Assembly (NCBI GenBank): GCA_951812955.1
Contig: OX638340.1
Coordinates: forward strand, 2,624,001-2,688,000
DNA length: 64,000 nt
DNA from: an uncultured Gemmatimonadota bacterium
GTDB lineage: Bacteria > JAAXHH01
Reading direction: 5' to 3'
Each line of letters opens with the position of its first letter. Position 1 is the stretch's first letter. Positions 3,368 to 58,065 of the stretch are shown in pieces. The notes under the pieces are model-generated. The model was given only the letters and a program-made list of their open reading frames with translations, was not told where the DNA came from and made no database searches. Both the position numbers and the translations under genes were made by a program.

Positions 3368-4390
3368 ATGAGAGTCAAGCAGGTTACCATCAAAGACATC
3401 GCCCAGCGGCTGGGTATTTCCCATTCCACGGTTTCGCGGGCTCTATCCAACAGCGCGGCTTACCTCGTCAACGAGAAGACCCGGATGCTCGTGAAGCAGA
3501 CCGCGGACGAGATGCAATATACTCCCAATCTGATGGCGCAGGGATTCGTAACCGGCAAGACGGGTACGCTGGGTTTGCTCACCTACCAGATTTCACTTGA
3601 AACGTACGGAAACCAGACCGAACAGATTCTCAGAGCGGCGGAAAATCAGCATTATCAACTGCTGATGGGCATGGCCGTAAGCCGGACTTCCAGGTCTTCC
3701 CAGGACGACCAGCGTACGCAGATCAGGCAGTTGATTTCAAGGGGCGTGGATGGACTCCTGATCAACACGCGGGGCGACAGGGAGGAATCGGATCGGATTA
3801 TCGAAGCGGTGCGGGACCGCATTCCAGTGGTGACGTATCATTATCCAACGGATCACATCAGTGGCGTCGTGCTGGACCTCGAGTCGGATTTCTATCAGGC
3901 GACGAAACACCTGATCGAATTGGGACACCGCAGGATCGGTTTCATCGGCCGGGTCATGGACGCGGAAAGTCCGGTGTCGTCCAAAGGGAGAGGGTACTTC
4001 AGGGCGATGAGAGACCACGACATGCCCCACGAGATCATTCCACCCCTGGGTATCCGGGGCGAGGGCGGCTACATCCAGGGCCAGAACCTGCGAGACCGGT
4101 TCACCGCGCTGGTGTGCAGGGATGACTACACGGCCATCGGCGTATGCCGCGGCCTGCGCGATGCGGGACTTCTAATACCGGAAGACGTGGCCGTGGTGGG
4201 CTTTGGAGATATCGACGTATCGGCCTACCTGTCGCCCGCGCTGACCACGATGGCCGTCCCTTACGAGGAAATAGCCCGGTCGGCGATGGAGCTGTTGCTG
4301 CGAAAGATCGGCGGAGAAGACACGACAGATCGGGCAACGCTCCGCTCCCGCCTCATCATACGCGAGTCCTGCGGTGGATACAGGGAATAA
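3368..4390 (+). CDS. LacI-family transcriptional regulator (paralog 3 of 3)
   Basis: MRVKQVTIKDIAQRLGISHSTVSRALS HTH; the long upstream extension of ORF 3089.. has no homology and is rejected, so start set at ATG 3368. Confidence 0.75.
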   Translation: MRVKQVTIKDIAQRLGISHSTVSRALSNSAAYLVNEKTRMLVKQTADEMQYTPNLMAQGFVTGKTGTLGLLTYQISLETYGNQTEQILRAAENQHYQLLMGMAVSRTSRSSQDDQRTQIRQLISRGVDGLLINTRGDREESDRIIEAVRDRIPVVTYHYPTDHISGVVLDLESDFYQATKHLIELGHRRIGFIGRVMDAESPVSSKGRGYFRAMRDHDMPHEIIPPLGIRGEGGYIQGQNLRDRFTALVCRDDYTAIGVCRGLRDAGLLIPEDVAVVGFGDIDVSAYLSPALTTMAVPYEEIARSAMELLLRKIGGEDTTDRATLRSRLIIRESCGGYRE

Positions 4391-4461
4391 GCCTTTTCCC
4401 ACCCTCTCGGAAACATCCCCTACAAAACAACCGCGATGGTCCGTGGCGCAATGCGGAAGGC

Positions 4462-5310
4462 CTATTCCCAGCGGTCCAGGCCCAGCAGCCGGCGTCCCAG
4501 GGCGGTGAGGCGCGCGGGACCGCTTCGTCGTTCGACGCCGCGCGGATCTCCCGGGAAAACTTCCGGATGCAAGCGGTTTCTCCAGAGCGAGATGCGGTGT
4601 TGCCGATGGTTTTCGTCATCTTCCTGGTTGGGCTTGGCGGAAATGTACTGGCACCAGCGCGGCCTGTCGGAAGTGTTGCGGCTGTTCCCGTGGGGCAGCA
4701 GACTGTGCCAGATGAGCAGGTCGCCGGCCTTTCCGGGAATCGCGGCAGGTTCCAGGCCCGTCATGTCCGGTCGCATGGGATCCCGGTCGGAAGGCTGGGT
4801 CTTCACCCATTCGAAAAACCGTTTGTGAAACCCCGGGACGCACTGGAAGCCGCCCTGGTTCTCCGCCGTATCGGTGAGGTACAGCACGCCCTGTACATTG
4901 AGCGCTTCGGGATGGGCCGTCGTGTCGATGTCCCAGTGTATCAGCGGCTCGTTGAAACCGTGCGGCCTGCTTTCCCGCTCCGGCGGCGTCATGTTGGTCC
5001 GGTCGATGCTCACCCACAGTTTCTCGTCGTCCCAAAGACGCTTGAAGGCCTCGTATACCCGGGGATACTGCCGGTTGTCCCACATCGCCTGGTGATGGTA
5101 CATTTCGACGAAACCGAGACGGCGCGGCGGACCTTCATACCATGTCTCCGGATCGCGTGGGTCCAGTTCCAGGAATGCGGCGATCGCCGATATCGTGGCC
5201 TCGAGATGCGATTCGGGTACAGCCCGGGGAATGATCACGTAGCCGTTTTCGTCCCAGCAGGTTTGCTGTTCATCGTTAAGCAACGCATTCCCCCGGTGTA
5301 ACGCATACAC
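4462..5310 (-). CDS. Phytanoyl-CoA dioxygenase (PhyH) family Fe(II)/2-oxoglutarate oxygenase
   Basis: 282-aa product with PhyH-like sequence (…HWDIDTT…, …GFHKRFFEW…); operon partner of the downstream Gfo/Idh/MocA gene. Confidence 0.6.
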   Translation of the reverse strand: MYALHRGNALLNDEQQTCWDENGYVIIPRAVPESHLEATISAIAAFLELDPRDPETWYEGPPRRLGFVEMYHHQAMWDNRQYPRVYEAFKRLWDDEKLWVSIDRTNMTPPERESRPHGFNEPLIHWDIDTTAHPEALNVQGVLYLTDTAENQGGFQCVPGFHKRFFEWVKTQPSDRDPMRPDMTGLEPAAIPGKAGDLLIWHSLLPHGNSRNTSDRPRWCQYISAKPNQEDDENHRQHRISLWRNRLHPEVFPGDPRGVERRSGPARLTALGRRLLGLDRWE

Positions 5311-5340
5311 ACTGGTGAATCGAATCGTCGTGCGGCCATA

Positions 5341-5440
5341 GCGCTCAGATCAAGGGTTCGATGGGCATTTCGCACCGCGTTTCGGCCGGAGCGCTCAGAT
5401 CAAGGGTTCGATGGGCACTTCGCGGCCCGTTTCCGCGGAT
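5341..5440. repeat. Imperfect 50-bp tandem duplication covering the 3' end and stop codon of the oxidoreductase gene
   Basis: Unit 5341-5390 vs 5391-5440, about 42/50 identical; second unit contains the stop codon of the gene 5395..6444. Confidence 0.7.
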
Positions 5441-6444
5441 CGGTAAATGCCGTTCAGAATCTGTTGCACAAGAAGGCCGTGCTCGCCCGGCGCTTCGGAC
5501 GGTTTACGGGTCCTCACGCAATCGATGTAATGTTCCATCTTGTAGCGGAAACCATTCAAATCGGGAAGATAATCCGGCGTCATGTTGACCATGGTGCCGG
5601 ACTGGTCCTTGAATACCCGGGGCGGACTGAACTCGCCGCCGGCCTTCTCTCCCATGAGGGAGAAGGTCCATTCGCCCTTGCCGATATGGGCCGCGAAAGA
5701 CGCTTCCACAGAGAGCGTGGCGCCGTTGTCGAACCTGATCATTCCCACCGCCAGGTCCTCGACCGAGTAGGTTTCGTGATCCCATTCGGGCCACATGGAA
5801 ACCGTGTCGCTGGGCCGGTCTCCCAGGTAGGTGTAGGCGCTCCCGAAGGCGCTGACGGGTTGCGGCGATCCCATGAGATAGTGAGCCGCTTCAATCATGT
5901 GCACGCCGATATCGATCAACGCGCCCCCGCCCTGAAGGTCTTTGCGGCCGAATACGCCCCAGTTCGGAATTCCCCGGCGGCGCAGGGCAAGGCATCGTCC
6001 GTACAGGATCCTGCCGAATTCTCCACGGTCGATGAAGCGCTTGAGCATCTGCGCCTCGGGCGCGAACCGGTGTTGAAATCCGATCACCAGGATGCGGTCC
6101 GTATCCCGGCTCGCTTTAACCATTCCCGCGGCCTCTTCCGCCGTAATGGCCATGGGTTTTTCCACAAGGACGTCTTTACCGGCCCGGAGCGCGTCGATGG
6201 TCGGTTCGTAATGGGCGCTGTTCGGCGTGCCCACGGTGACCGCGTCGATCGAATCCATCTCCAGCAGTTCCCGGTAGTCCTTGAAACAGTGTGAGATGCC
6301 GTACATATCCCGGCAGGTTTCCAGGGCGGCATCGCTGATGTCGGCGACCGCCGCAAGCTCCACGTCTTCCAACTCGGACAGGTACTTCATATGCTCCCGG
6401 GCGATACCGCCCCCACCGATGAAACCCACCTTCGTTCTACGCAC
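5395..6444 (-). CDS. Gfo/Idh/MocA family NAD(P)-dependent oxidoreductase
   Basis: N-terminal Rossmann fold KVGFIGGGGIAREHMKYL; EKPMA motif. Confidence 0.8.
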   Translation of the reverse strand: MRRTKVGFIGGGGIAREHMKYLSELEDVELAAVADISDAALETCRDMYGISHCFKDYRELLEMDSIDAVTVGTPNSAHYEPTIDALRAGKDVLVEKPMAITAEEAAGMVKASRDTDRILVIGFQHRFAPEAQMLKRFIDRGEFGRILYGRCLALRRRGIPNWGVFGRKDLQGGGALIDIGVHMIEAAHYLMGSPQPVSAFGSAYTYLGDRPSDTVSMWPEWDHETYSVEDLAVGMIRFDNGATLSVEASFAAHIGKGEWTFSLMGEKAGGEFSPPRVFKDQSGTMVNMTPDYLPDLNGFRYKMEHYIDCVRTRKPSEAPGEHGLLVQQILNGIYRSAETGREVPIEPLI

Positions 6445-36203: not shown

Positions 36204-38567
36204 ATGCTCAAAAGCTACCTGACCATAGCGATCCGGAATATGACGAGGCAGAAGGGATATACGGCGATCAACGTGCTCGGACTGGCCGTGGGCATGGTCT
36301 GCGCCATTTTGATCTTCTTTTACGTCGATTTCGAGCTCAGTTATGACCGGTATCATGAGAACGCCGGCCGTATCTACCGGGTCGCGGTCAACAACGACGC
36401 CCGGACGCCTCCAGCCCTGGCGCCCGCACTGCAGCAAGATTTCCCGGAAATCACGCGTTCTGTTCGCCTGCTGCCGACAACCGGTGTGTGGATCATGAAC
36501 CACGCGGAGAACATATATTACGAAAACCGGGTTTACTGGGCGGACAACGCGCTGTTCGACATTCTTGATTTTCCCTTGATCCAGGGAGATTCCCGGTCTG
36601 CGCTCGTTGCGCCTTTATCCGTGGTAATCAGCGAAGATACGGCCCAAAAGTACTTCGGAGAAACGGATCCGATGGGCAAGACGATTATCGCCGATAACGG
36701 TTTCCTGGTACTGACCGTTACGGGCGTCATGGAAAACACGCCGGCGAATACACACCTTCAGGCAGACTTCATCATTTCCCTTTCCACGGCATACCAGGAT
36801 GACCTGAAATACTGGTCGTGGATCAATTTCTACACCTACATCCTGTTGTCCGAGGGCCAGTCACCAGAGGCTACCGAGAGGAAACTGCCCGATTTCGTGA
36901 ACCGGCACATCGGGGAACGCGAGGGCCGTTTCGATCTCTTTCTGCAGCCGGTCACCGACATTCATCTCCATTCCAATCTCGAGCATGAACCCGGCGCGAA
37001 CAGCGATATCACCTACGTTTACATCCTGTCGGCCATCGCCGTCTTCATCCTGGTCGTCGCCTGCATCAATTTCATCAACCTGTCTACCGCACGGTTTGCC
37101 GTCCGCGCTCGAGAAGTGGGACTGCGCAAAGTGCTGGGAGCCCACCGAATCCAGCTGATACGTCAGTTTCTGGGAGAATCGGTCCTGGTAACCGCCGCCG
37201 CGCTGATCATCGCCCTGGTGGTCCTTTTGCTGATCTCCCCGTATATCGACGGCTTTGCAGGGAAACCGGTAACCGCGGCATTCACGGGACATCTCCCCTG
37301 GCTGCTCGCACTGCCGGTGGTTGCGCTGGTCATCGGGTTGTTATCCGGCAGCTATCCCGCTTTCCTTCTTTCTGCCATGCAACCGATACAGGGCGTGAAG
37401 GGAGGCCGCCGGCTCGATTCGGCCGGGGCCATGTCGAGGAAGATTCTGGTTGTTATCCAGTTCTCGATATCCATCGCGTTGATCATCAGCACGGGGATTT
37501 TGTTCAGTCAGATGGAATACCTCCGCAACAAGCGTCTGGGCTTCGATCAGAACCAGGTGATCGTGATACCCACGTTTAACGATGTCCTGGATGACTTTCA
37601 ACCCTGGAAAGAAGCCTTGCTGCAACATGCAGGCGTGATCGGGGTGACCCAAAGCAGGTCGCTGCCAGGACTGGCCGGCAACATCGGCCAGGTTGAGACC
37701 GTCACGATACAGCGTGTCGATGACCCCGGCAATACCAGGCACGACGCGCAGGGACTGAACGTCGGTCTGGATTTCGTGGAGACCCTGGGCATGGAACTGA
37801 TTGCAGGGCGGTCTCATGATGGTGCGTTTGCCAGGGAAGCGGAGAGACTGAACATCGTAATCAACGAAACGGCGCTCCGCGCGCTGGGCTGGGAAACCCC
37901 GGAGGCGGCCATCGACCAGCAGGTACGGTTCGGCAACGACGCGACGCGGACTGTTATCGGAGTGATCGGGGATTTCCATTTTCGATCGTTGCATCTGAAG
38001 ATCGAACCGCTCGTGTTGTTTCTGGGCGGCGGTTCCCACATGGCGGTCAAGCTCCAGCCCGGGGTCGTGGAAGATACGCTGGATATGATTGAAAGCCAGT
38101 GGTCGCGGTTCTTTCCGGATTTCCCCTTCGCTTATACGTTTCTCGACGAGAACATCGATCGGCTGTACAGGTCTGAAGTCGCTACCAGTTACGTGATCGG
38201 CATATTCGCCATGGTGGCTGTTTTCCTTGCCTGTCTCGGACTGTTCGCGTTGGTTTCGTTCACGGTGGAGCTGCGAACCAGGGAGATCGGCATTCGGAAA
38301 TCGCTCGGTGCTTCCGTCCATCGGATGCTGGCCCTGCTTTCCAGCGAGTTCATCGGCCTCGTGCTCCTCGCCAATTTCTTCGCCTGGCCGGCTTCGTGGC
38401 TGGTCATGCAGCGGTGGCTCGAGTCTTTCGCTTACCGCACGGAGGTCGGATTGGGCGTCTTCTTTCTTGCGTGCGGTCTGGCCCTGCTGATCACGCTGAT
38501 CACCATCGCCTTTCATGTGACCCGTACCGCCCTGACCAATCCGGCGGAGGTGTTGCGAAACGAGTGA
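36204..38567 (+). CDS. MacB/FtsX-type ABC transporter permease (paralog 2)
   Basis: 787 aa, high similarity to paralogs 1 and 3 throughout. Confidence 0.8.
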   Translation: MLKSYLTIAIRNMTRQKGYTAINVLGLAVGMVCAILIFFYVDFELSYDRYHENAGRIYRVAVNNDARTPPALAPALQQDFPEITRSVRLLPTTGVWIMNHAENIYYENRVYWADNALFDILDFPLIQGDSRSALVAPLSVVISEDTAQKYFGETDPMGKTIIADNGFLVLTVTGVMENTPANTHLQADFIISLSTAYQDDLKYWSWINFYTYILLSEGQSPEATERKLPDFVNRHIGEREGRFDLFLQPVTDIHLHSNLEHEPGANSDITYVYILSAIAVFILVVACINFINLSTARFAVRAREVGLRKVLGAHRIQLIRQFLGESVLVTAAALIIALVVLLLISPYIDGFAGKPVTAAFTGHLPWLLALPVVALVIGLLSGSYPAFLLSAMQPIQGVKGGRRLDSAGAMSRKILVVIQFSISIALIISTGILFSQMEYLRNKRLGFDQNQVIVIPTFNDVLDDFQPWKEALLQHAGVIGVTQSRSLPGLAGNIGQVETVTIQRVDDPGNTRHDAQGLNVGLDFVETLGMELIAGRSHDGAFAREAERLNIVINETALRALGWETPEAAIDQQVRFGNDATRTVIGVIGDFHFRSLHLKIEPLVLFLGGGSHMAVKLQPGVVEDTLDMIESQWSRFFPDFPFAYTFLDENIDRLYRSEVATSYVIGIFAMVAVFLACLGLFALVSFTVELRTREIGIRKSLGASVHRMLALLSSEFIGLVLLANFFAWPASWLVMQRWLESFAYRTEVGLGVFFLACGLALLITLITIAFHVTRTALTNPAEVLRNE

Positions 38568-38641
38568 CCGGGGCCGGGGGCGGGAGTTCTGATTTCAGTT
38601 CCCGCCGGGGCAAGCGAGGTTTCGTAGCGATACGCAAAGGG

Positions 38642-40066
38642 ATGGTCAACTCCATGAAACACGTCGTCATCGTGGGCGGCGGCTTTGCCGGACTGAACGC
38701 GGCCAAGAAACTCGGCGGCCGGACCGATGTCCGCGTCACCCTGGTGGACCGGCAGAACTACCACCTGTTCCAGCCGCTCCTCTACCAGGTGGCCATGGCC
38801 GGCCTGTCGCCCGCCGATATCGCCACGCCCATACGCAGCGTGCTTGCCCGGTGCGGGAACATTTCGGTGCTGCAGGGCTCGGTCGAGCGGGTCGATCTGC
38901 AGGAACGGACCGTATCGGTGGATTTCGGCCAGCTTCAATATGATTATCTGATGCTCTGTTGCGGGTCGATCCCGAGCTATTTCGGTCACGAGGACTGGGA
39001 GGAGCACGCACCCAGCCTGAAGACGATTCCGCAGGCCACCGAGATTCGCCGGCGCCTGCTGAGTGCCTTCGAAGAAGCGGAACGGACCGACGACACTGAG
39101 CGGCGCCGGCAACTGCTGACCTTCGTCGTCATAGGCGGCGGACCCACCGGAGTGGAGCTAGCGGGCGCCATCGGCGAAATGAGCCGTTTCACCCTCGCGC
39201 GGGACTTCCGCAACATCGACACGAAACTTACCCGCGTCATCCTGATCGAATCGGGCCCGCGCATCCTCTCGATGTTCTCCGAAAAGCTGGCGTCCCGGGC
39301 GACGCGGGACCTGGAAAAGCTCGGCGTGCAGGTCTGGCCGAACACGCTCGCGACGGATATAGACGAGCATGGCGTGCAGGCGGGACCGGAACGCATCGCG
39401 TCCTCGACGGTACTCTGGGCGGCGGGCGTTCGGGGCGTTGAAATCGAGGGACAGCGGCAACAGGGCGTGGAGGCGGAGCGAGTGGGGCGCGCGGAAGCAG
39501 ACTGCGAGGGACACGTGGAGGTAGACTGCGAGGGACACGTGGAGGTAGACCGCGGTGGACGCGTGGAGACGGACCGCGGAGCGCACGTGGAGGTGGACCG
39601 CGGGGGACGCGTAGTCGTCAACGAAGACCTGAGCATCCCAGGACACCCGAACGTGTTCGTCGCGGGCGACCAGGCCTGTTTTACCCACCAGACCGGCAGT
39701 CCCCTTCCGGGCACAGCGCCCGTGGCTATCCAGCAGGGACGCTTCGTGGCACAGACTATTCGCCGCGACCTCGCGTGCAGACCGCGTGAGGCCTTTCGAT
39801 TCGTCGACAAGGGACAGATGGCGACGATCGGTCGCAGCCGTGCCATCGTGGAAATCGGTAAACTCAGATTCTCAGGCTGGTTCGCGTGGGTCACCTGGCT
39901 GGTGGTGCACGTCTACTTCCTCGTGGGTTTCAAGAACCGGCTGCTGGTCGTACTGCACTGGGCCTGGTCCTATCTGACCTTCCGCCGCGGCGCCAGGCTG
40001 ATCGTGGAGCGCGAGTGGCGTTTCGGCGGGCGCAAGGACGAGACCATGCCTGACAGGGAAGAATAA
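38642..40066 (+). CDS. ndh: Type II NADH dehydrogenase (NDH-2) family FAD-dependent oxidoreductase, carrying an in-frame repeat insertion
   Basis: KHVVIVGGGFAGLNAAKKL FAD fold; second dinucleotide fold FVVIGGGPTGVELAG; …NVFVAGDQA…; start at ATG 38642 (MVNSMKH). Confidence 0.8.
   Translation: MVNSMKHVVIVGGGFAGLNAAKKLGGRTDVRVTLVDRQNYHLFQPLLYQVAMAGLSPADIATPIRSVLARCGNISVLQGSVERVDLQERTVSVDFGQLQYDYLMLCCGSIPSYFGHEDWEEHAPSLKTIPQATEIRRRLLSAFEEAERTDDTERRRQLLTFVVIGGGPTGVELAGAIGEMSRFTLARDFRNIDTKLTRVILIESGPRILSMFSEKLASRATRDLEKLGVQVWPNTLATDIDEHGVQAGPERIASSTVLWAAGVRGVEIEGQRQQGVEAERVGRAEADCEGHVEVDCEGHVEVDRGGRVETDRGAHVEVDRGGRVVVNEDLSIPGHPNVFVAGDQACFTHQTGSPLPGTAPVAIQQGRFVAQTIRRDLACRPREAFRFVDKGQMATIGRSRAIVEIGKLRFSGWFAWVTWLVVHVYFLVGFKNRLLVVLHWAWSYLTFRRGARLIVEREWRFGGRKDETMPDREE
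39500..39619 (+). repeat. In-frame 24-bp tandem repeat x5 inside ndh (DCEGHVEV-DCEGHVEV-DRGGRVET-DRGAHVEV-DRGGRVVV)
   Basis: First two units identical; last unit corresponds to the conserved DRxGRVVV(N/D) segment of NDH-2. Confidence 0.85.
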
Positions 40067-42456
40067 TGCCCGGAAGCAAGTTCACCATAAGTCTACGGCA
40101 CATGAGCCGCCAACGGGGATATACCGCGATAAACGTCCTCGGGCTGGCCGTGGGCCTGGTCTGCGCGATCCTGATCTTCCTGTACGTGCGCTGGGAACTG
40201 AGCTACGACCGCTACCACGAAAAGGCCGACCGTATCTACCGGGTAACGCTCAACGACAGCGCCCGATCGCCCCGTGAACTGGGTCCGATACTGCAGGCCG
40301 ACTTCCCCGAAATCCAGCAGTACGCCCGATTGCTTCCCACCATTGGAACCTGGATCATGAAGTACGAAGACCGGGTTTACTATGAAAAGAACGTGTACTG
40401 GGCCAACAACGAGCTGTTCCACGTATTTGACTTTCCCCTCGTCAGAGGAGATCCCGATCATGCCCTCGTAGCACCGTACACGGCGGTGATCAGCGAGGAT
40501 ACGGCCAGGAAATATTTCGGCGAGGACGATCCCATGGGGAAGACCATAATCGCCGACAATGGCTACATGCTGCTGACCGTCACAGGCGTCATGGAGAATG
40601 TTCCGGAAAACTCCCATTTTCATCCCGAATTCCTGATATCCTTGCCTACCGGATATGACAAATTCCAATGGAGCGAGACCCCGAGAATCTGGTATAGCGA
40701 CCTTTTTTACACCTACGTCGTCATGCCTGAAGGCCATCCGCCGTTGGAGACCCAGGAGAAACTGCCCGGTTTCGTGGAGAAACACGTAGAAGCGAGTTTC
40801 CTGGAGGACATCGGCCGTTTCGAACTGACGCTGCAACCCCTCACCGATATCCACCTTCATTCCCATCTTGAAAACGAGCACGGCACGAACACCGATATCT
40901 CCTACGTGTATATCCAGTCCGCCATCGGGCTGTTCATCCTGATCATCGCTTCGGTGAATTATGTAAACCTGTCCACCGCGCAGTTCGCGCACCGGGCCCG
41001 CGAGATCGGCATGCGCAAGGTTCTGGGGGCGTCCCGGGGACAGTTGATTCGGCAATACCTGGGCGAATCGGTCCTGATGACCATCGCGGCCCTGTTGATC
41101 GCCCTGGCGGCGGTCTACTTTCTTGCGCCGTATTTCGACGCGCTGCTGGGCCTGCCGGTAACCGCGGTCCATGCGCTGCACCCCCTGTGGTGGTTCGCCA
41201 TGCCGGCCATCGCGATCCTCATCGGGCTCCTTTCGGGTGGTTACCCGGCCCTTTTGTTCTCCTCCATGCGGGTCATTCCGGGGCTCAAGGCAGCGCAGCC
41301 CTACCAGCTTGGCGGCGCGTGGTCCAGGAAGATCCTGGTCATCGCCCAGTTCGTCATTTCCATCGCGCTGATCATCGGAACGGGCATCCTGTTCAGCCAG
41401 TTGAACTTCATTCAGAACAAGAAACTGGGATTCGAAAAGGACCTGGTGATCGTGATTCCCACGGTTCAGCAGGTGGCGGTCAACTACCAGCCGTGGAAAG
41501 ATGCCCTGTTGCAGTACACCGGAGTGGACGGCGTGAGCCAGGCCATCACCCTGCCCGGCCTGTTCGGTACCATAGGCCGGATGTCGACCGGTACGATCCA
41601 GCGCGTCGAGGATCCGGACCACGTCCGGCATACCGTCCAGGGATTTCAGGCCGCCGTGGATTTCGTGGAGACGATGGGCATGGAACTGCTCGCGGGCAGG
41701 TCTCATCGCGGGTCATTCAGAAACGACACCGAAACTGAAAACATCGTGATCAACGAAGCGGCTATGCGCGTCCTGGGCTGGGAAACGCCCGAAGAGGCCA
41801 TCGGCCGGCAGGTCCGCTTCGCCAGTGGAAACATCCACACGGTAGTCGGCGTGGTCCGGGACTTTCACTTCCGTACGCTTCACCTTGCCATCGAGCCGCT
41901 CGTATTCTTTCACGGCACAGGCCTGCACCTGGTGGTCCGGATCCGACCCGAAGACATCAGTCGCACGCTGGAATTCATCGAAGGGACATGGTCCGAGTTC
42001 TTCCCCGATTTCCCCTTTGCCTATACGTTTCTCGACGAAGACATCGACCGCCTGTATCGGACAGAGGCTCGTATCGGCTACTTCTTCGGCGCATTCGCCC
42101 TGGTTGCTGTTTTCCTCACCTGCCTGGGCCTCGTCGCGCTGGTATCGTTCACGGTCGAACGGCGGACCCGGGAGATCGGCATACGCAAGGCACTGGGCGC
42201 TTCCGTGCGGCGGCTACTCGCCATGCTGTCCGCCGAGTTCGTAGGACTTGCGCTCGTTGCCAATGTCTTCGCCTGGCCTGCGGCGTGGCTGATCATGACC
42301 CGCTGGCTCGAGGATTACGCCTACCGTGTCGAGTTCGGATGGGACATATTCTTCCTTTCGGGCGGCGCAGCGGTGCTGATCACCCTGGTCACCATCGGGT
42401 ACCACGTAATCCGGACTGCGTTGGCCAACCCCGCGGACGTGTTGCGGAGTGAGTGA
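40066..42456 (+). CDS. MacB/FtsX-type ABC transporter permease (paralog 3)
   Basis: 796 aa; ATG overlaps ndh stop (TAATG). Confidence 0.8.
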   Translation: MPGSKFTISLRHMSRQRGYTAINVLGLAVGLVCAILIFLYVRWELSYDRYHEKADRIYRVTLNDSARSPRELGPILQADFPEIQQYARLLPTIGTWIMKYEDRVYYEKNVYWANNELFHVFDFPLVRGDPDHALVAPYTAVISEDTARKYFGEDDPMGKTIIADNGYMLLTVTGVMENVPENSHFHPEFLISLPTGYDKFQWSETPRIWYSDLFYTYVVMPEGHPPLETQEKLPGFVEKHVEASFLEDIGRFELTLQPLTDIHLHSHLENEHGTNTDISYVYIQSAIGLFILIIASVNYVNLSTAQFAHRAREIGMRKVLGASRGQLIRQYLGESVLMTIAALLIALAAVYFLAPYFDALLGLPVTAVHALHPLWWFAMPAIAILIGLLSGGYPALLFSSMRVIPGLKAAQPYQLGGAWSRKILVIAQFVISIALIIGTGILFSQLNFIQNKKLGFEKDLVIVIPTVQQVAVNYQPWKDALLQYTGVDGVSQAITLPGLFGTIGRMSTGTIQRVEDPDHVRHTVQGFQAAVDFVETMGMELLAGRSHRGSFRNDTETENIVINEAAMRVLGWETPEEAIGRQVRFASGNIHTVVGVVRDFHFRTLHLAIEPLVFFHGTGLHLVVRIRPEDISRTLEFIEGTWSEFFPDFPFAYTFLDEDIDRLYRTEARIGYFFGAFALVAVFLTCLGLVALVSFTVERRTREIGIRKALGASVRRLLAMLSAEFVGLALVANVFAWPAAWLIMTRWLEDYAYRVEFGWDIFFLSGGAAVLITLVTIGYHVIRTALANPADVLRSE

Positions 42457-56882: not shown

Positions 56883-57015
56883 TCCTAGCCTGCAGCCGTA
56901 TTATCCTCAGGTATTAAGTCCTTGTTCCGGATTCAATACCCATACTGAATGGTTTGATTAGGCAGTAGCGAAGAAAACGAGCCCGCCCGTTCCTCACCCG
57001 CTCTTCACCCGCTCT

Positions 57016-58065
57016 TCATCCACTCCTCACCCACTCCAGATCGAACCGGACCAACTTGATCGTCTCGTAGGGATGATCTTCTCCCCGTTCATAGAGGCAG
57101 GCGACGGTACCGTCTGGAAGCACGGCGAGGGATGAATAGGCGGACGGCCCGGGATGCAGCACCTTTTCACGTGGCCAGGATCCGCCGGCTTCATCGGAAA
57201 GTCTCACGGTCAGGTTACACCGCTCGTCCCGGCTGGCCGGATTCGAGAACAGCAGGCGGTCGCCCGCGCCGGGATACCGGACGAGGGCCGCCTGGCAGAT
57301 CGGTTCGATCAGCGTTTCGTCGTGGCGCTGGTTACGCCACGTCATCCCGCCGTCTCCGCTGACGGCGAACTGCCTGGTGCGCAAGGCCCGGTCGTAATTT
57401 CGCATGTTGAGCAGGACGTCGCCGTTTTCCAGCTCGGTGACGCAGCATTCGTTGACCTGGTCTTGCAAAGTCGTGCCGCCCATCCGCCAGGTTTCCCCAT
57501 GGTCTTCGCTGTATATGACATGAGAATAGTAGCGTTTGGTGCTTGCCTCTATGTGGTCGCAGGGTATCAGCATCCGGCCCGACGATAGCTGAATTCCGTT
57601 GCCCGGTCCGGTGGCGTACCACGTCCAGTCCGCGCGCTTCGCGGTGGAGGTGATATCCCGCGGTTCGCGCCACGTGCGGCCGTCGTCTTCGCTGGCCGTG
57701 ACCCAGACGGTCCGTGAGCCCTGGCTCGTCCCCTCGATGATCTCGGATTCGCGGTCGATCCCCATGTTGTGGGTCATGAGCAGCCATACTTTCCCGGTCT
57801 CGCCGTCTACCACCGGACAGGGATTGCCGCAGGTATTCCCTGCGTCCGCCCAGACCAGCTCCTGGTCCGACCAGGTGCGCCCGCCGTCTTCGCTCCGCTT
57901 CACCAGCATGTCGATATCGCCGGTGTCGCTTCGGCTGCTCCTCCGGCCTTCGCAGAAGGCGAGGACCGTACCCCGGGTTGTCGCGATGATCGCTGGAATG
58001 CGGTAGGTATCGTAACCTTCCGTGCCGCTGGTCCAGATATCGGATTGTTTACAGGAGCCGCTCAT
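57016..58065 (-). CDS. Exo-alpha-sialidase (GH33, BNR/Asp-box repeats)
   Basis: YRIP motif (YDTYRIPAI) and Asp-boxes SEDGGRTW, SEDDGRTW, SGDGGMTW. Confidence 0.85.
   Translation of the reverse strand: MSGSCKQSDIWTSGTEGYDTYRIPAIIATTRGTVLAFCEGRRSSRSDTGDIDMLVKRSEDGGRTWSDQELVWADAGNTCGNPCPVVDGETGKVWLLMTHNMGIDRESEIIEGTSQGSRTVWVTASEDDGRTWREPRDITSTAKRADWTWYATGPGNGIQLSSGRMLIPCDHIEASTKRYYSHVIYSEDHGETWRMGGTTLQDQVNECCVTELENGDVLLNMRNYDRALRTRQFAVSGDGGMTWRNQRHDETLIEPICQAALVRYPGAGDRLLFSNPASRDERCNLTVRLSDEAGGSWPREKVLHPGPSAYSSLAVLPDGTVACLYERGEDHPYETIKLVRFDLEWVRSG

Follow-up and report, generated by a model that had tools for sequence, protein, structure and literature searches.

A gene for a predicted type II NADH:quinone oxidoreductase (NDH-2) in a 64-kb stretch of DNA from an uncultured Gemmatimonadota bacterium (the window, by which we mean the whole stretch analysed) contains six head-to-tail, in-frame units of 24 bp, and the number of such units ranges from one to six at orthologous loci. 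This array is probably a coding minisatellite, i.e., an in-frame variable-number tandem repeat (VNTR), situated in a tolerant loop of the enzyme, where slippage or unequal recombination would change its length under nearly neutral conditions. The kind of repeat is a known one, here in an unusual host protein.

The repeat array

An initial annotation of this region described five 24-bp units at 39500-39619, the first two identical, within an NDH-2 gene. Direct reading and translation agree with this description: the segment consists of five head-to-tail units, which share the frame of the plus-strand open reading frame (ORF) 38396-40066. Dividing the loop into 24-nt blocks backward from the array end reveals, directly upstream, a sixth and degenerate unit that keeps the register of the array; the units are numbered here from 1 to 6 starting with that unit. 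Residues are numbered on the 474-aa form of the protein, which starts at 38642. The features of the locus are as follows.

38654..40066, plus strand: NDH-2 gene, 470 aa from ATG 38654 (MKHVVIVGGG)
39416..39475, plus strand: WAAGV strand (39416-39430) followed by a clade-specific 15-aa leader, RGVEIEGQRQQGVEA
39476..39499, plus strand: unit 1, degenerate, GAGCGAGTGGGGCGCGCGGAAGCA, encoding ERVGRAEA
39500..39547, plus strand: units 2 and 3, identical, two copies of GACTGCGAGGGACACGTGGAGGTA, each encoding DCEGHVEV
39548..39595, plus strand: units 4 and 5, GACCGCGGTGGACGCGTGGAGACG encoding DRGGRVET and GACCGCGGAGCGCACGTGGAGGTG encoding DRGAHVEV
39596..39619, plus strand: unit 6, the native strand, GACCGCGGGGGACGCGTAGTCGTC encoding DRGGRVVV (residues 319-326)

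The leader RGVEIEGQRQQGVEA stands in place of the usual xASPLGxxLGxxx linker of canonical NDH-2 enzymes, as judged from loops extracted from homologues and loci. Unit 6 opens the β-hairpin that precedes the GD motif and pairs with LDRAGRVKV of mycobacterial NDH-2 (PDB code 9mqy) in the alignment, and its residues Asp319, Arg320, Gly322, Arg323, and Val326 are nearly invariant among 66 homologues. Tandem Repeats Finder detects 4.8 copies of a 24-bp period (39499-39612, score 128) and, as an alternative, a 48-bp period (score 142). Only one array in the window, an intergenic 50-bp repeat in two copies at 5333-5433 (score 160), outscores it. The coding strand is G-rich at the array, with a GC skew of +0.36 over 39400-39599.

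The unit consensus has no other match in the 64-kb window with up to 3 mismatches (0.00 matches expected from 100 dinucleotide-preserving shuffles), and an in-frame insertion of a dispersed repeat or mobile element was rejected, given the absence of the consensus elsewhere in the window. The variable region of a diversity-generating retroelement was likewise considered and rejected: no template repeat is present in the window at ≤3 mismatches (a reverse transcriptase was not searched for), and the variation is mainly in copy number.

The host gene

Based on its domains, motifs, and nearest structures, the ORF is assigned as NDH-2, in agreement with the initial annotation. The product matches the Pfam families Pyr_redox_2 (PF07992, 150.1 bits, cut-off 26.1), Pyr_redox (PF00070, 54.1 bits, cut-off 22), and the membrane-anchor domain NDH2_C (PF22366, 32.2 bits, cut-off 27.7). 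The top match among PDB sequences is 9mqy (E 8.7e-101, 40% identity), followed by the enzymes from S. aureus, B. subtilis (YjlD), and C. thermarum, and yeast Ndi1. A Foldseek search with the AlphaFold2 (AF2) model also places 9mqy first (E 6.4e-44, TM 0.77/0.82), followed by the S. aureus, C. thermarum, Ndi1, and PfNDH2 structures. Both GxGxxG motifs, GGGFAG (Gly12, Gly13, Gly14, and Gly17) and GGGPTGVE (Gly165, Gly167, and Gly170, plus Glu172), are invariant in the 66 homologues, as is the GD motif (Gly342 and Asp343).

The start at ATG 38654, giving MKHVVIVGGG, is the one used in nearly all orthologue calls; other in-frame starts are ATG 38642 and GTG 38564. The public call for the window gene (P0130), located on one 3,813,436-bp contig, uses GTG 38564 and is 500 aa long.

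NDH-2 enzymes are peripheral membrane proteins on the cytoplasmic face (bioRxiv 10.1101/2025.01.08.631920), and by family assignment the product of the window gene is a cytoplasmic-face peripheral membrane enzyme and not a surface antigen.

Paralogous ABC permease genes of the MacB/FtsX type lie on both sides of the NDH-2 gene, at 36204-38567 (787 aa) and 40066-42456 (796 aa). The 3' permease gene begins on the final base of the NDH-2 stop codon (40066), and the order permease, NDH-2, permease is kept in every orthologous locus fetched.

Copy number at orthologous loci

The closest homologues, about 74-94% identical, are found in metagenome-assembled genomes and metagenomes labelled Gemmatimonadetes or Candidatus Latescibacterota, with record names that suggest sponge or coral sources, Ircinia, Aplysina, and Porites among them (e.g., IrcVar142, SB0665_bin_8, APA_bin_41, and Plut_88884). 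Gene order was compared in eight loci obtained by exact-protein look-up and in a ninth locus from a genome, L036, the latter by colinear blastn. All share the order Meth_synt_2 methionine-synthase-domain gene, MacB/FtsX permease, NDH-2, MacB/FtsX permease, methyltransferase, and because of this common order they are regarded as orthologous to the window locus. The order recurs in the metagenome contig L089 as well. The numbers of units in the loci are as follows.

1 unit: L083
2 units: L086
3 units: L084 and L087
4 units: L085 and L088
6 units: L081 (= L082), L036, and the metagenome contig L089

With the members of 90% clusters included, 28 proteins present 20 distinct arrays, which are without exception in frame and whole multiples of the octapeptide, with one (n = 1), two (n = 2), three (n = 3), four (n = 4), five (n = 3), or six units (n = 7). 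A scan of metagenomes for the DNA pattern of the array returned two contigs only, with 6 and 4 units. Apart from the loop, the nucleotide sequences of NDH-2 are 93-99% identical across these loci, with no indels. The genes of L086 and the window are 99.1% identical outside the loop, yet L086 has two units and the window has six. Over the 7.4-kb locus the two are 95-97% identical, the blastn alignment is broken at the array only, and the 3.47 kb downstream of the array align with 0 gaps.

Unit sequences add a recent history to these counts. Units 2 and 3 of the window are identical, and allele P0125 (DRVGRTEA DCEGHVEV DRGGRVET DRGAHVEV DRGGRLIV) presents the window unit order minus one DCEGHVEV, with the remaining units near-identical; L081/L082 carry the 24-mer GACTGCGAGGGACACGTGGAGGTA once. 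Because the copies are identical, and because P0125 and L081 have a single DCEGHVEV, the doubling is recent, as had been proposed from the identity of the two copies alone, and units 2 and 3 are the most recent duplication of the array. Recent duplications have occurred repeatedly: in L085, units 2 and 3 are identical except for 1 nt, and in L081, units 1 and 4 are fully identical. Units are also shared between alleles, with 1 nt separating unit 4 of the window from unit 4 of L081, and unit 5 of the window from unit 2 of L084. The 5' halves of unit 1 are identical in the window and in L086 (GAGCGAGTGGG...), and the 3' halves are not; such a mosaic is of the type expected from unequal exchange.

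In the 20 alleles, the terminal unit reads DRGGRV[IV]V in 18, with ERGGRVIV and DRGGRLIV as single-residue exceptions. In internal units, positions 2-5 and 8 are variable, and position 7 is Glu rather than Val or Ile. The proposal that only the last unit represents the conserved DRxGRVxV strand is therefore upheld, since this unit is nearly fixed and the internal ones are variable.

Collapse or expansion by an assembler might be invoked to explain the array as a whole, or only its identical doubled unit. Assemblers do err at identical tandem units, and the exact allele of the window is on record from the single contig that carries P0130, exact-protein look-ups having found no further contig. 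However, the same architecture is present in 20 alleles from ENA, JGI, NCBI, and Logan assemblies, on contigs of both short- and long-read style, and an ENA assembly and a Logan assembly of a different run contain the six-unit allele P0001 without any difference. Moreover, two identical copies span 48 bp, which is less than one read, and every allele is in frame. We consider an assembly artefact very improbable.

The difference in copy number between very close genomes, together with several independent and very recent duplications, also bears on the suggestion in the initial annotation that the array is a contingency or phase-variable locus, where rapid and reversible switching of copy number within a population would alter phenotype. 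The length polymorphism itself is borne out, as close strains do differ. The contingency part is not, and is highly unlikely to be correct. A 24-bp unit causes no frameshift and offers no on/off switch (the frame is kept in 20 of 20 alleles), the coding region, and not a promoter, contains the array, and the product is, by family assignment, a housekeeping respiratory enzyme on the cytoplasmic face. Furthermore, loop length is fixed in two sister lineages, at 56 aa in 15 of 15 members of one cluster and at 50 aa in all 8 members read of another, and in view of these lineages the instability of the array is not extreme.

Size and position of the insertion

Relative to the single-unit orthologue P0012, the insertion comprises 40 aa, i.e., five extra octapeptides (residues 279-318). 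It belongs to the second part of the FAD domain, where it follows the WAAGV strand and precedes both the DRxGR hairpin and the GD motif (Gly342-Asp343). The segment from WAAGV to GD is 85 aa long in the window protein and 43 aa in about 20 diverse NDH-2 loci, a difference of about 42 aa, and in the alignment with 9mqy, 48 window residues are unaligned opposite 10 chain residues, which makes the window loop about 38 aa longer. The earlier estimate of about 32 residues gained by repeat amplification was thus right as to amplification, given the range from 1 to 6 units at the same syntenic locus, but too small, since the array has six units and the gain is 40 aa.

In the closest single-unit orthologues (P0011, P0012, and P0014) the segment from WAAGV to GD is 45 aa long and reads WAAGV-RGVELDGQRQHGVEA-DRGGRVVV-NEDLSIPGHPNVFVAGD.

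Constraint and predicted structure

Outside the insert, the number of non-synonymous substitutions per site (dN) is 0.014-0.020, with a ratio to the synonymous rate (omega) of 0.09-0.15. In the insert, dN is 0.12-0.30 and omega is 0.44-1.5. Both sets of values were obtained by the Nei-Gojobori method from pairs of equal unit number, with small counts and with an uncertain orthology of units that also inflates the synonymous rate (dS). Compared with the remainder of the gene, the internal units show a 6- to 15-fold higher non-synonymous rate. Judged by these substitution patterns, purifying selection on NDH-2 is strong and the insert is much less constrained; the selection outside the insert argues that the window gene is functional.

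In the AF2 model of the window protein, the mean predicted local distance difference test score (pLDDT) is 75.8, and residues 274-312 fall below 50. The flanks of the insert return to 86-94 within two ten-residue blocks, and the core matches NDH-2 structures with TM 0.77-0.82. The model of the single-unit protein P0012 shows a coil at this site, with pLDDT 55-73 and nowhere a segment below 50. By this modelling, the insert has no confidently predicted structure, and it is presumably solvent-exposed. The position and the low-confidence prediction together suggest that it is tolerated as a flexible loop.

A match of the peptide encoded by 39431-39619 to Gp5_trimer_C, the octapeptide β-helix of T4 gp5, is below threshold (14.5 bits against 30.9, E 0.041). 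The AF2 model shows no β-helix in the insert, where pLDDT is below 50, and we treat the match as a coincidence of periodicity. The best match of the insert peptide among PDB sequences had an E value of 0.76 and was rejected.

Origin and turnover of the array

A possible route to the array starts from the state preserved in single-unit orthologues, ...QRQxG-VEADRGGR-VVVN. At such a locus, the 24-mer encoding VEADRGGR (about GTGGAGGCGGACCGCGGGGGACGS) is bordered on either side by GTGG (...GGC GTGGAGGCGGACCGCGGGGGACGG GTGGTC...), and this microhomology could have seeded the first event. Duplication of the 24-mer would directly yield GVEA-DRGGRVEA-DRGGRVVV, with no further change needed. A first copy of the VEADRGGR segment would account for Val-Glu at positions 6-7 of the internal units and for the native Val-[Ile/Val]-Val in the last unit only. 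Once two copies were present, slipped-strand mispairing, unequal recombination, or both would add, delete, and reshuffle units, and could thereby produce the 1-6 copies seen among genomes that are about 93-99% identical in NDH-2. Steps of eight codons would keep the enzyme in frame throughout, the extra residues being charged, Gly-rich, and modelled with pLDDT below 50.

Additional repeats in the same gene are relevant to this scheme. A 10-bp direct repeat is found upstream of the array.

39323-39332 and 39371-39380, plus strand: two copies of GGCGTGCAGG, 48 bp apart and the only two in the 64-kb window

In a sister lineage (P0020, P0025, P0031, P0033, P0040, and P0048), exactly the 48-bp segment that these copies delimit in the window, part of the NADH domain, is tandemly duplicated in frame, which adds the 16 aa GVQVRPNTLATEIDDQ; at locus L009 it forms an array of 2.2 copies (4670-4775) that are 100% identical. 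The window segment 39323-39380 is the pre-duplication configuration of the 48-bp segment, and as such a second, latent slippage site. Relatives that are further removed (about 78-83% identical) have, in the loop that holds the 24-bp units in the window, 9-bp arrays encoding Gln-His-Gly or Gln-Gln-Gly, with 4.3 copies in L004 (4868-4906, beside a 24-bp array of 1.9 copies) and 6.3 copies in L012 (4810-4883). The NDH-2 loop is a clade-wide hot spot for repeats of differing types, and the 9-bp arrays and the 48-bp duplication support microhomology-seeded slippage as a general process in this gene.

Two further tandem repeats in the window lie outside the NDH-2 gene. The 50-bp direct repeat at 5333-5433 (two copies, 88% identical) is located between the convergent ORFs 4144-5301 (plus strand) and 5395-6444 (minus strand), and could be a repetitive extragenic palindrome (REP)-like element, a terminator, or a small RNA. 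An 11-bp array of 4.7 copies (CCCGCTCCTCA-like) at 56986-57037, with a unit that is not a multiple of 3, lies at and just past the 3' end of the minus-strand ORF 57016-58065.

A nearly neutral minisatellite or a selected loop

Several observations weigh against a nearly neutral minisatellite. The doubled DCEGHVEV of the window genome rests on one assembly (P0130), and the GTGG microhomology is only 4 bp and weak. Instability driven by a DNA hairpin or cruciform was rejected: the 192-nt coding strand has a minimum free energy of -31.9 kcal/mol compared with a shuffle mean of -33.7 kcal/mol (z = +0.65), so the single-stranded array folds no better than shuffles and no hairpin accounts for the instability. 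The loop is expanded in most of the about 50 closest homologues with an extractable loop, by at least two unrelated repeat types, and such persistent expansion could reflect selection for a long charged loop rather than tolerance of it. Asp1, Val6, and Glu7 are well conserved in internal units, which could be due to constraint rather than to recency or homogenisation. Finally, no allele exceeds six units, and this may indicate a selective upper bound or merely small sampling.

The last three of these observations, together with the frequent His, Cys, Asp, and Glu and the omega values below 1 in colinear comparisons of the insert (0.44, 0.53, and 0.58), are also what speaks for an adaptive, clade-specific loop, the length of which would be tuned by the repeat number. 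Its charged units (octapeptides with Gly, His, and Cys in the window, Gln-His-Gly tripeptides in relatives) might serve in metal binding, partner docking, or membrane or dimer contacts, and host niches would select particular lengths. We regard such a role as unlikely. Single-unit or near-canonical alleles occur in several branches (P0011, P0012, P0014, P0029, P0035, P0044, P0047, and P0049), so the insert is dispensable. The unit sequence is also poorly conserved, with the 6- to 15-fold excess in dN given above, and the loop has neither a confident AF2 structure nor a Pfam or PDB match above threshold. Moreover, host-driven diversifying selection is not expected on the cytoplasmic face, where NDH-2 is situated. 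Should length nevertheless tune the enzyme, the array would provide a rare example of a respiratory enzyme adjusted through repeat number.

A more specific proposal, which we consider less likely still, is that the loop is a selected, clade-specific, flexible, and charged arm rich in His, Cys, Asp, and Glu, with a length tuned as repeats are gained and lost, and perhaps made of stacked β-hairpins grown from the native DRGGRVxV hairpin. If selected, the arm could modulate metal binding, partner docking, or membrane or dimer contacts, and if composed of stacked hairpins, it would capture in progress the birth of a repeat subdomain from a single strand of the enzyme core.

With the array read as a nearly neutral coding minisatellite, the locus offers a natural series from one to six units in 20 alleles, with the single-unit and pre-duplication states preserved. 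Such a series would illustrate how a microhomology of a few bases can seed a coding minisatellite in a conserved enzyme, and what loop lengths NDH-2 tolerates at one site. This has some value for studies of protein evolution and for loop engineering, and strains of an uncultured symbiont lineage could be typed by means of the array. No new mechanism is opened by it, and no open question is resolved.

Comparison with known systems

The window protein shares its fold, motifs, and C-terminal membrane anchor with the solved NDH-2 enzymes (9mqy and 9mqz, S. aureus 5na1, C. thermarum 4nwz, and Ndi1). These have about 10 unaligned residues at the insertion site, none of them with a repeat there, compared with 48 in the window protein. 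The cryo-EM preprint on mycobacterial NDH-2 places dimer contacts in the C-terminal helices and is silent on the insert loop (bioRxiv 10.1101/2025.01.08.631920), and a full-text literature search returned nothing relevant on tandem-repeat insertions in NDH-2.

Insertions with an EF-hand or CxxC motif are known in other NDH-2 enzymes, and according to their description (PMC5299459) they are sited between the GD motif and helix α7 and contain a recognisable functional motif. As for these, the window insert is a lineage-specific addition to the conserved NDH-2 scaffold, but it occupies a different site, before the GD motif, is repetitive and variable in length, and lacks a recognised motif. Identity with the known EF-hand/CxxC site is ruled out, as the position differs and the insert has no EF-hand match and no CxxC.

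The simple-sequence contingency loci of host-adapted bacteria switch expression by frameshift or by promoter spacing, and are mostly found in surface or restriction-modification genes. The window array resembles them in that the length of the repeat tract varies among close strains, but unlike in contingency loci, its changes are always in frame and affect a housekeeping enzyme.

The array also resembles bacterial in-frame coding VNTRs, which arise by slipped-strand mispairing or unequal recombination. As in those, the units are head-to-tail and a multiple of 3 in length, the array is mosaic with identical or near-identical neighbours, and close strains differ in the number of copies. Descriptions of bacterial coding VNTRs typically concern surface or secreted proteins, for example adhesins and antigens. 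The window array, in contrast, is embedded in a core respiratory flavoenzyme assigned to the cytoplasmic face, and would have been seeded around the codons of a conserved β-strand of the FAD domain.

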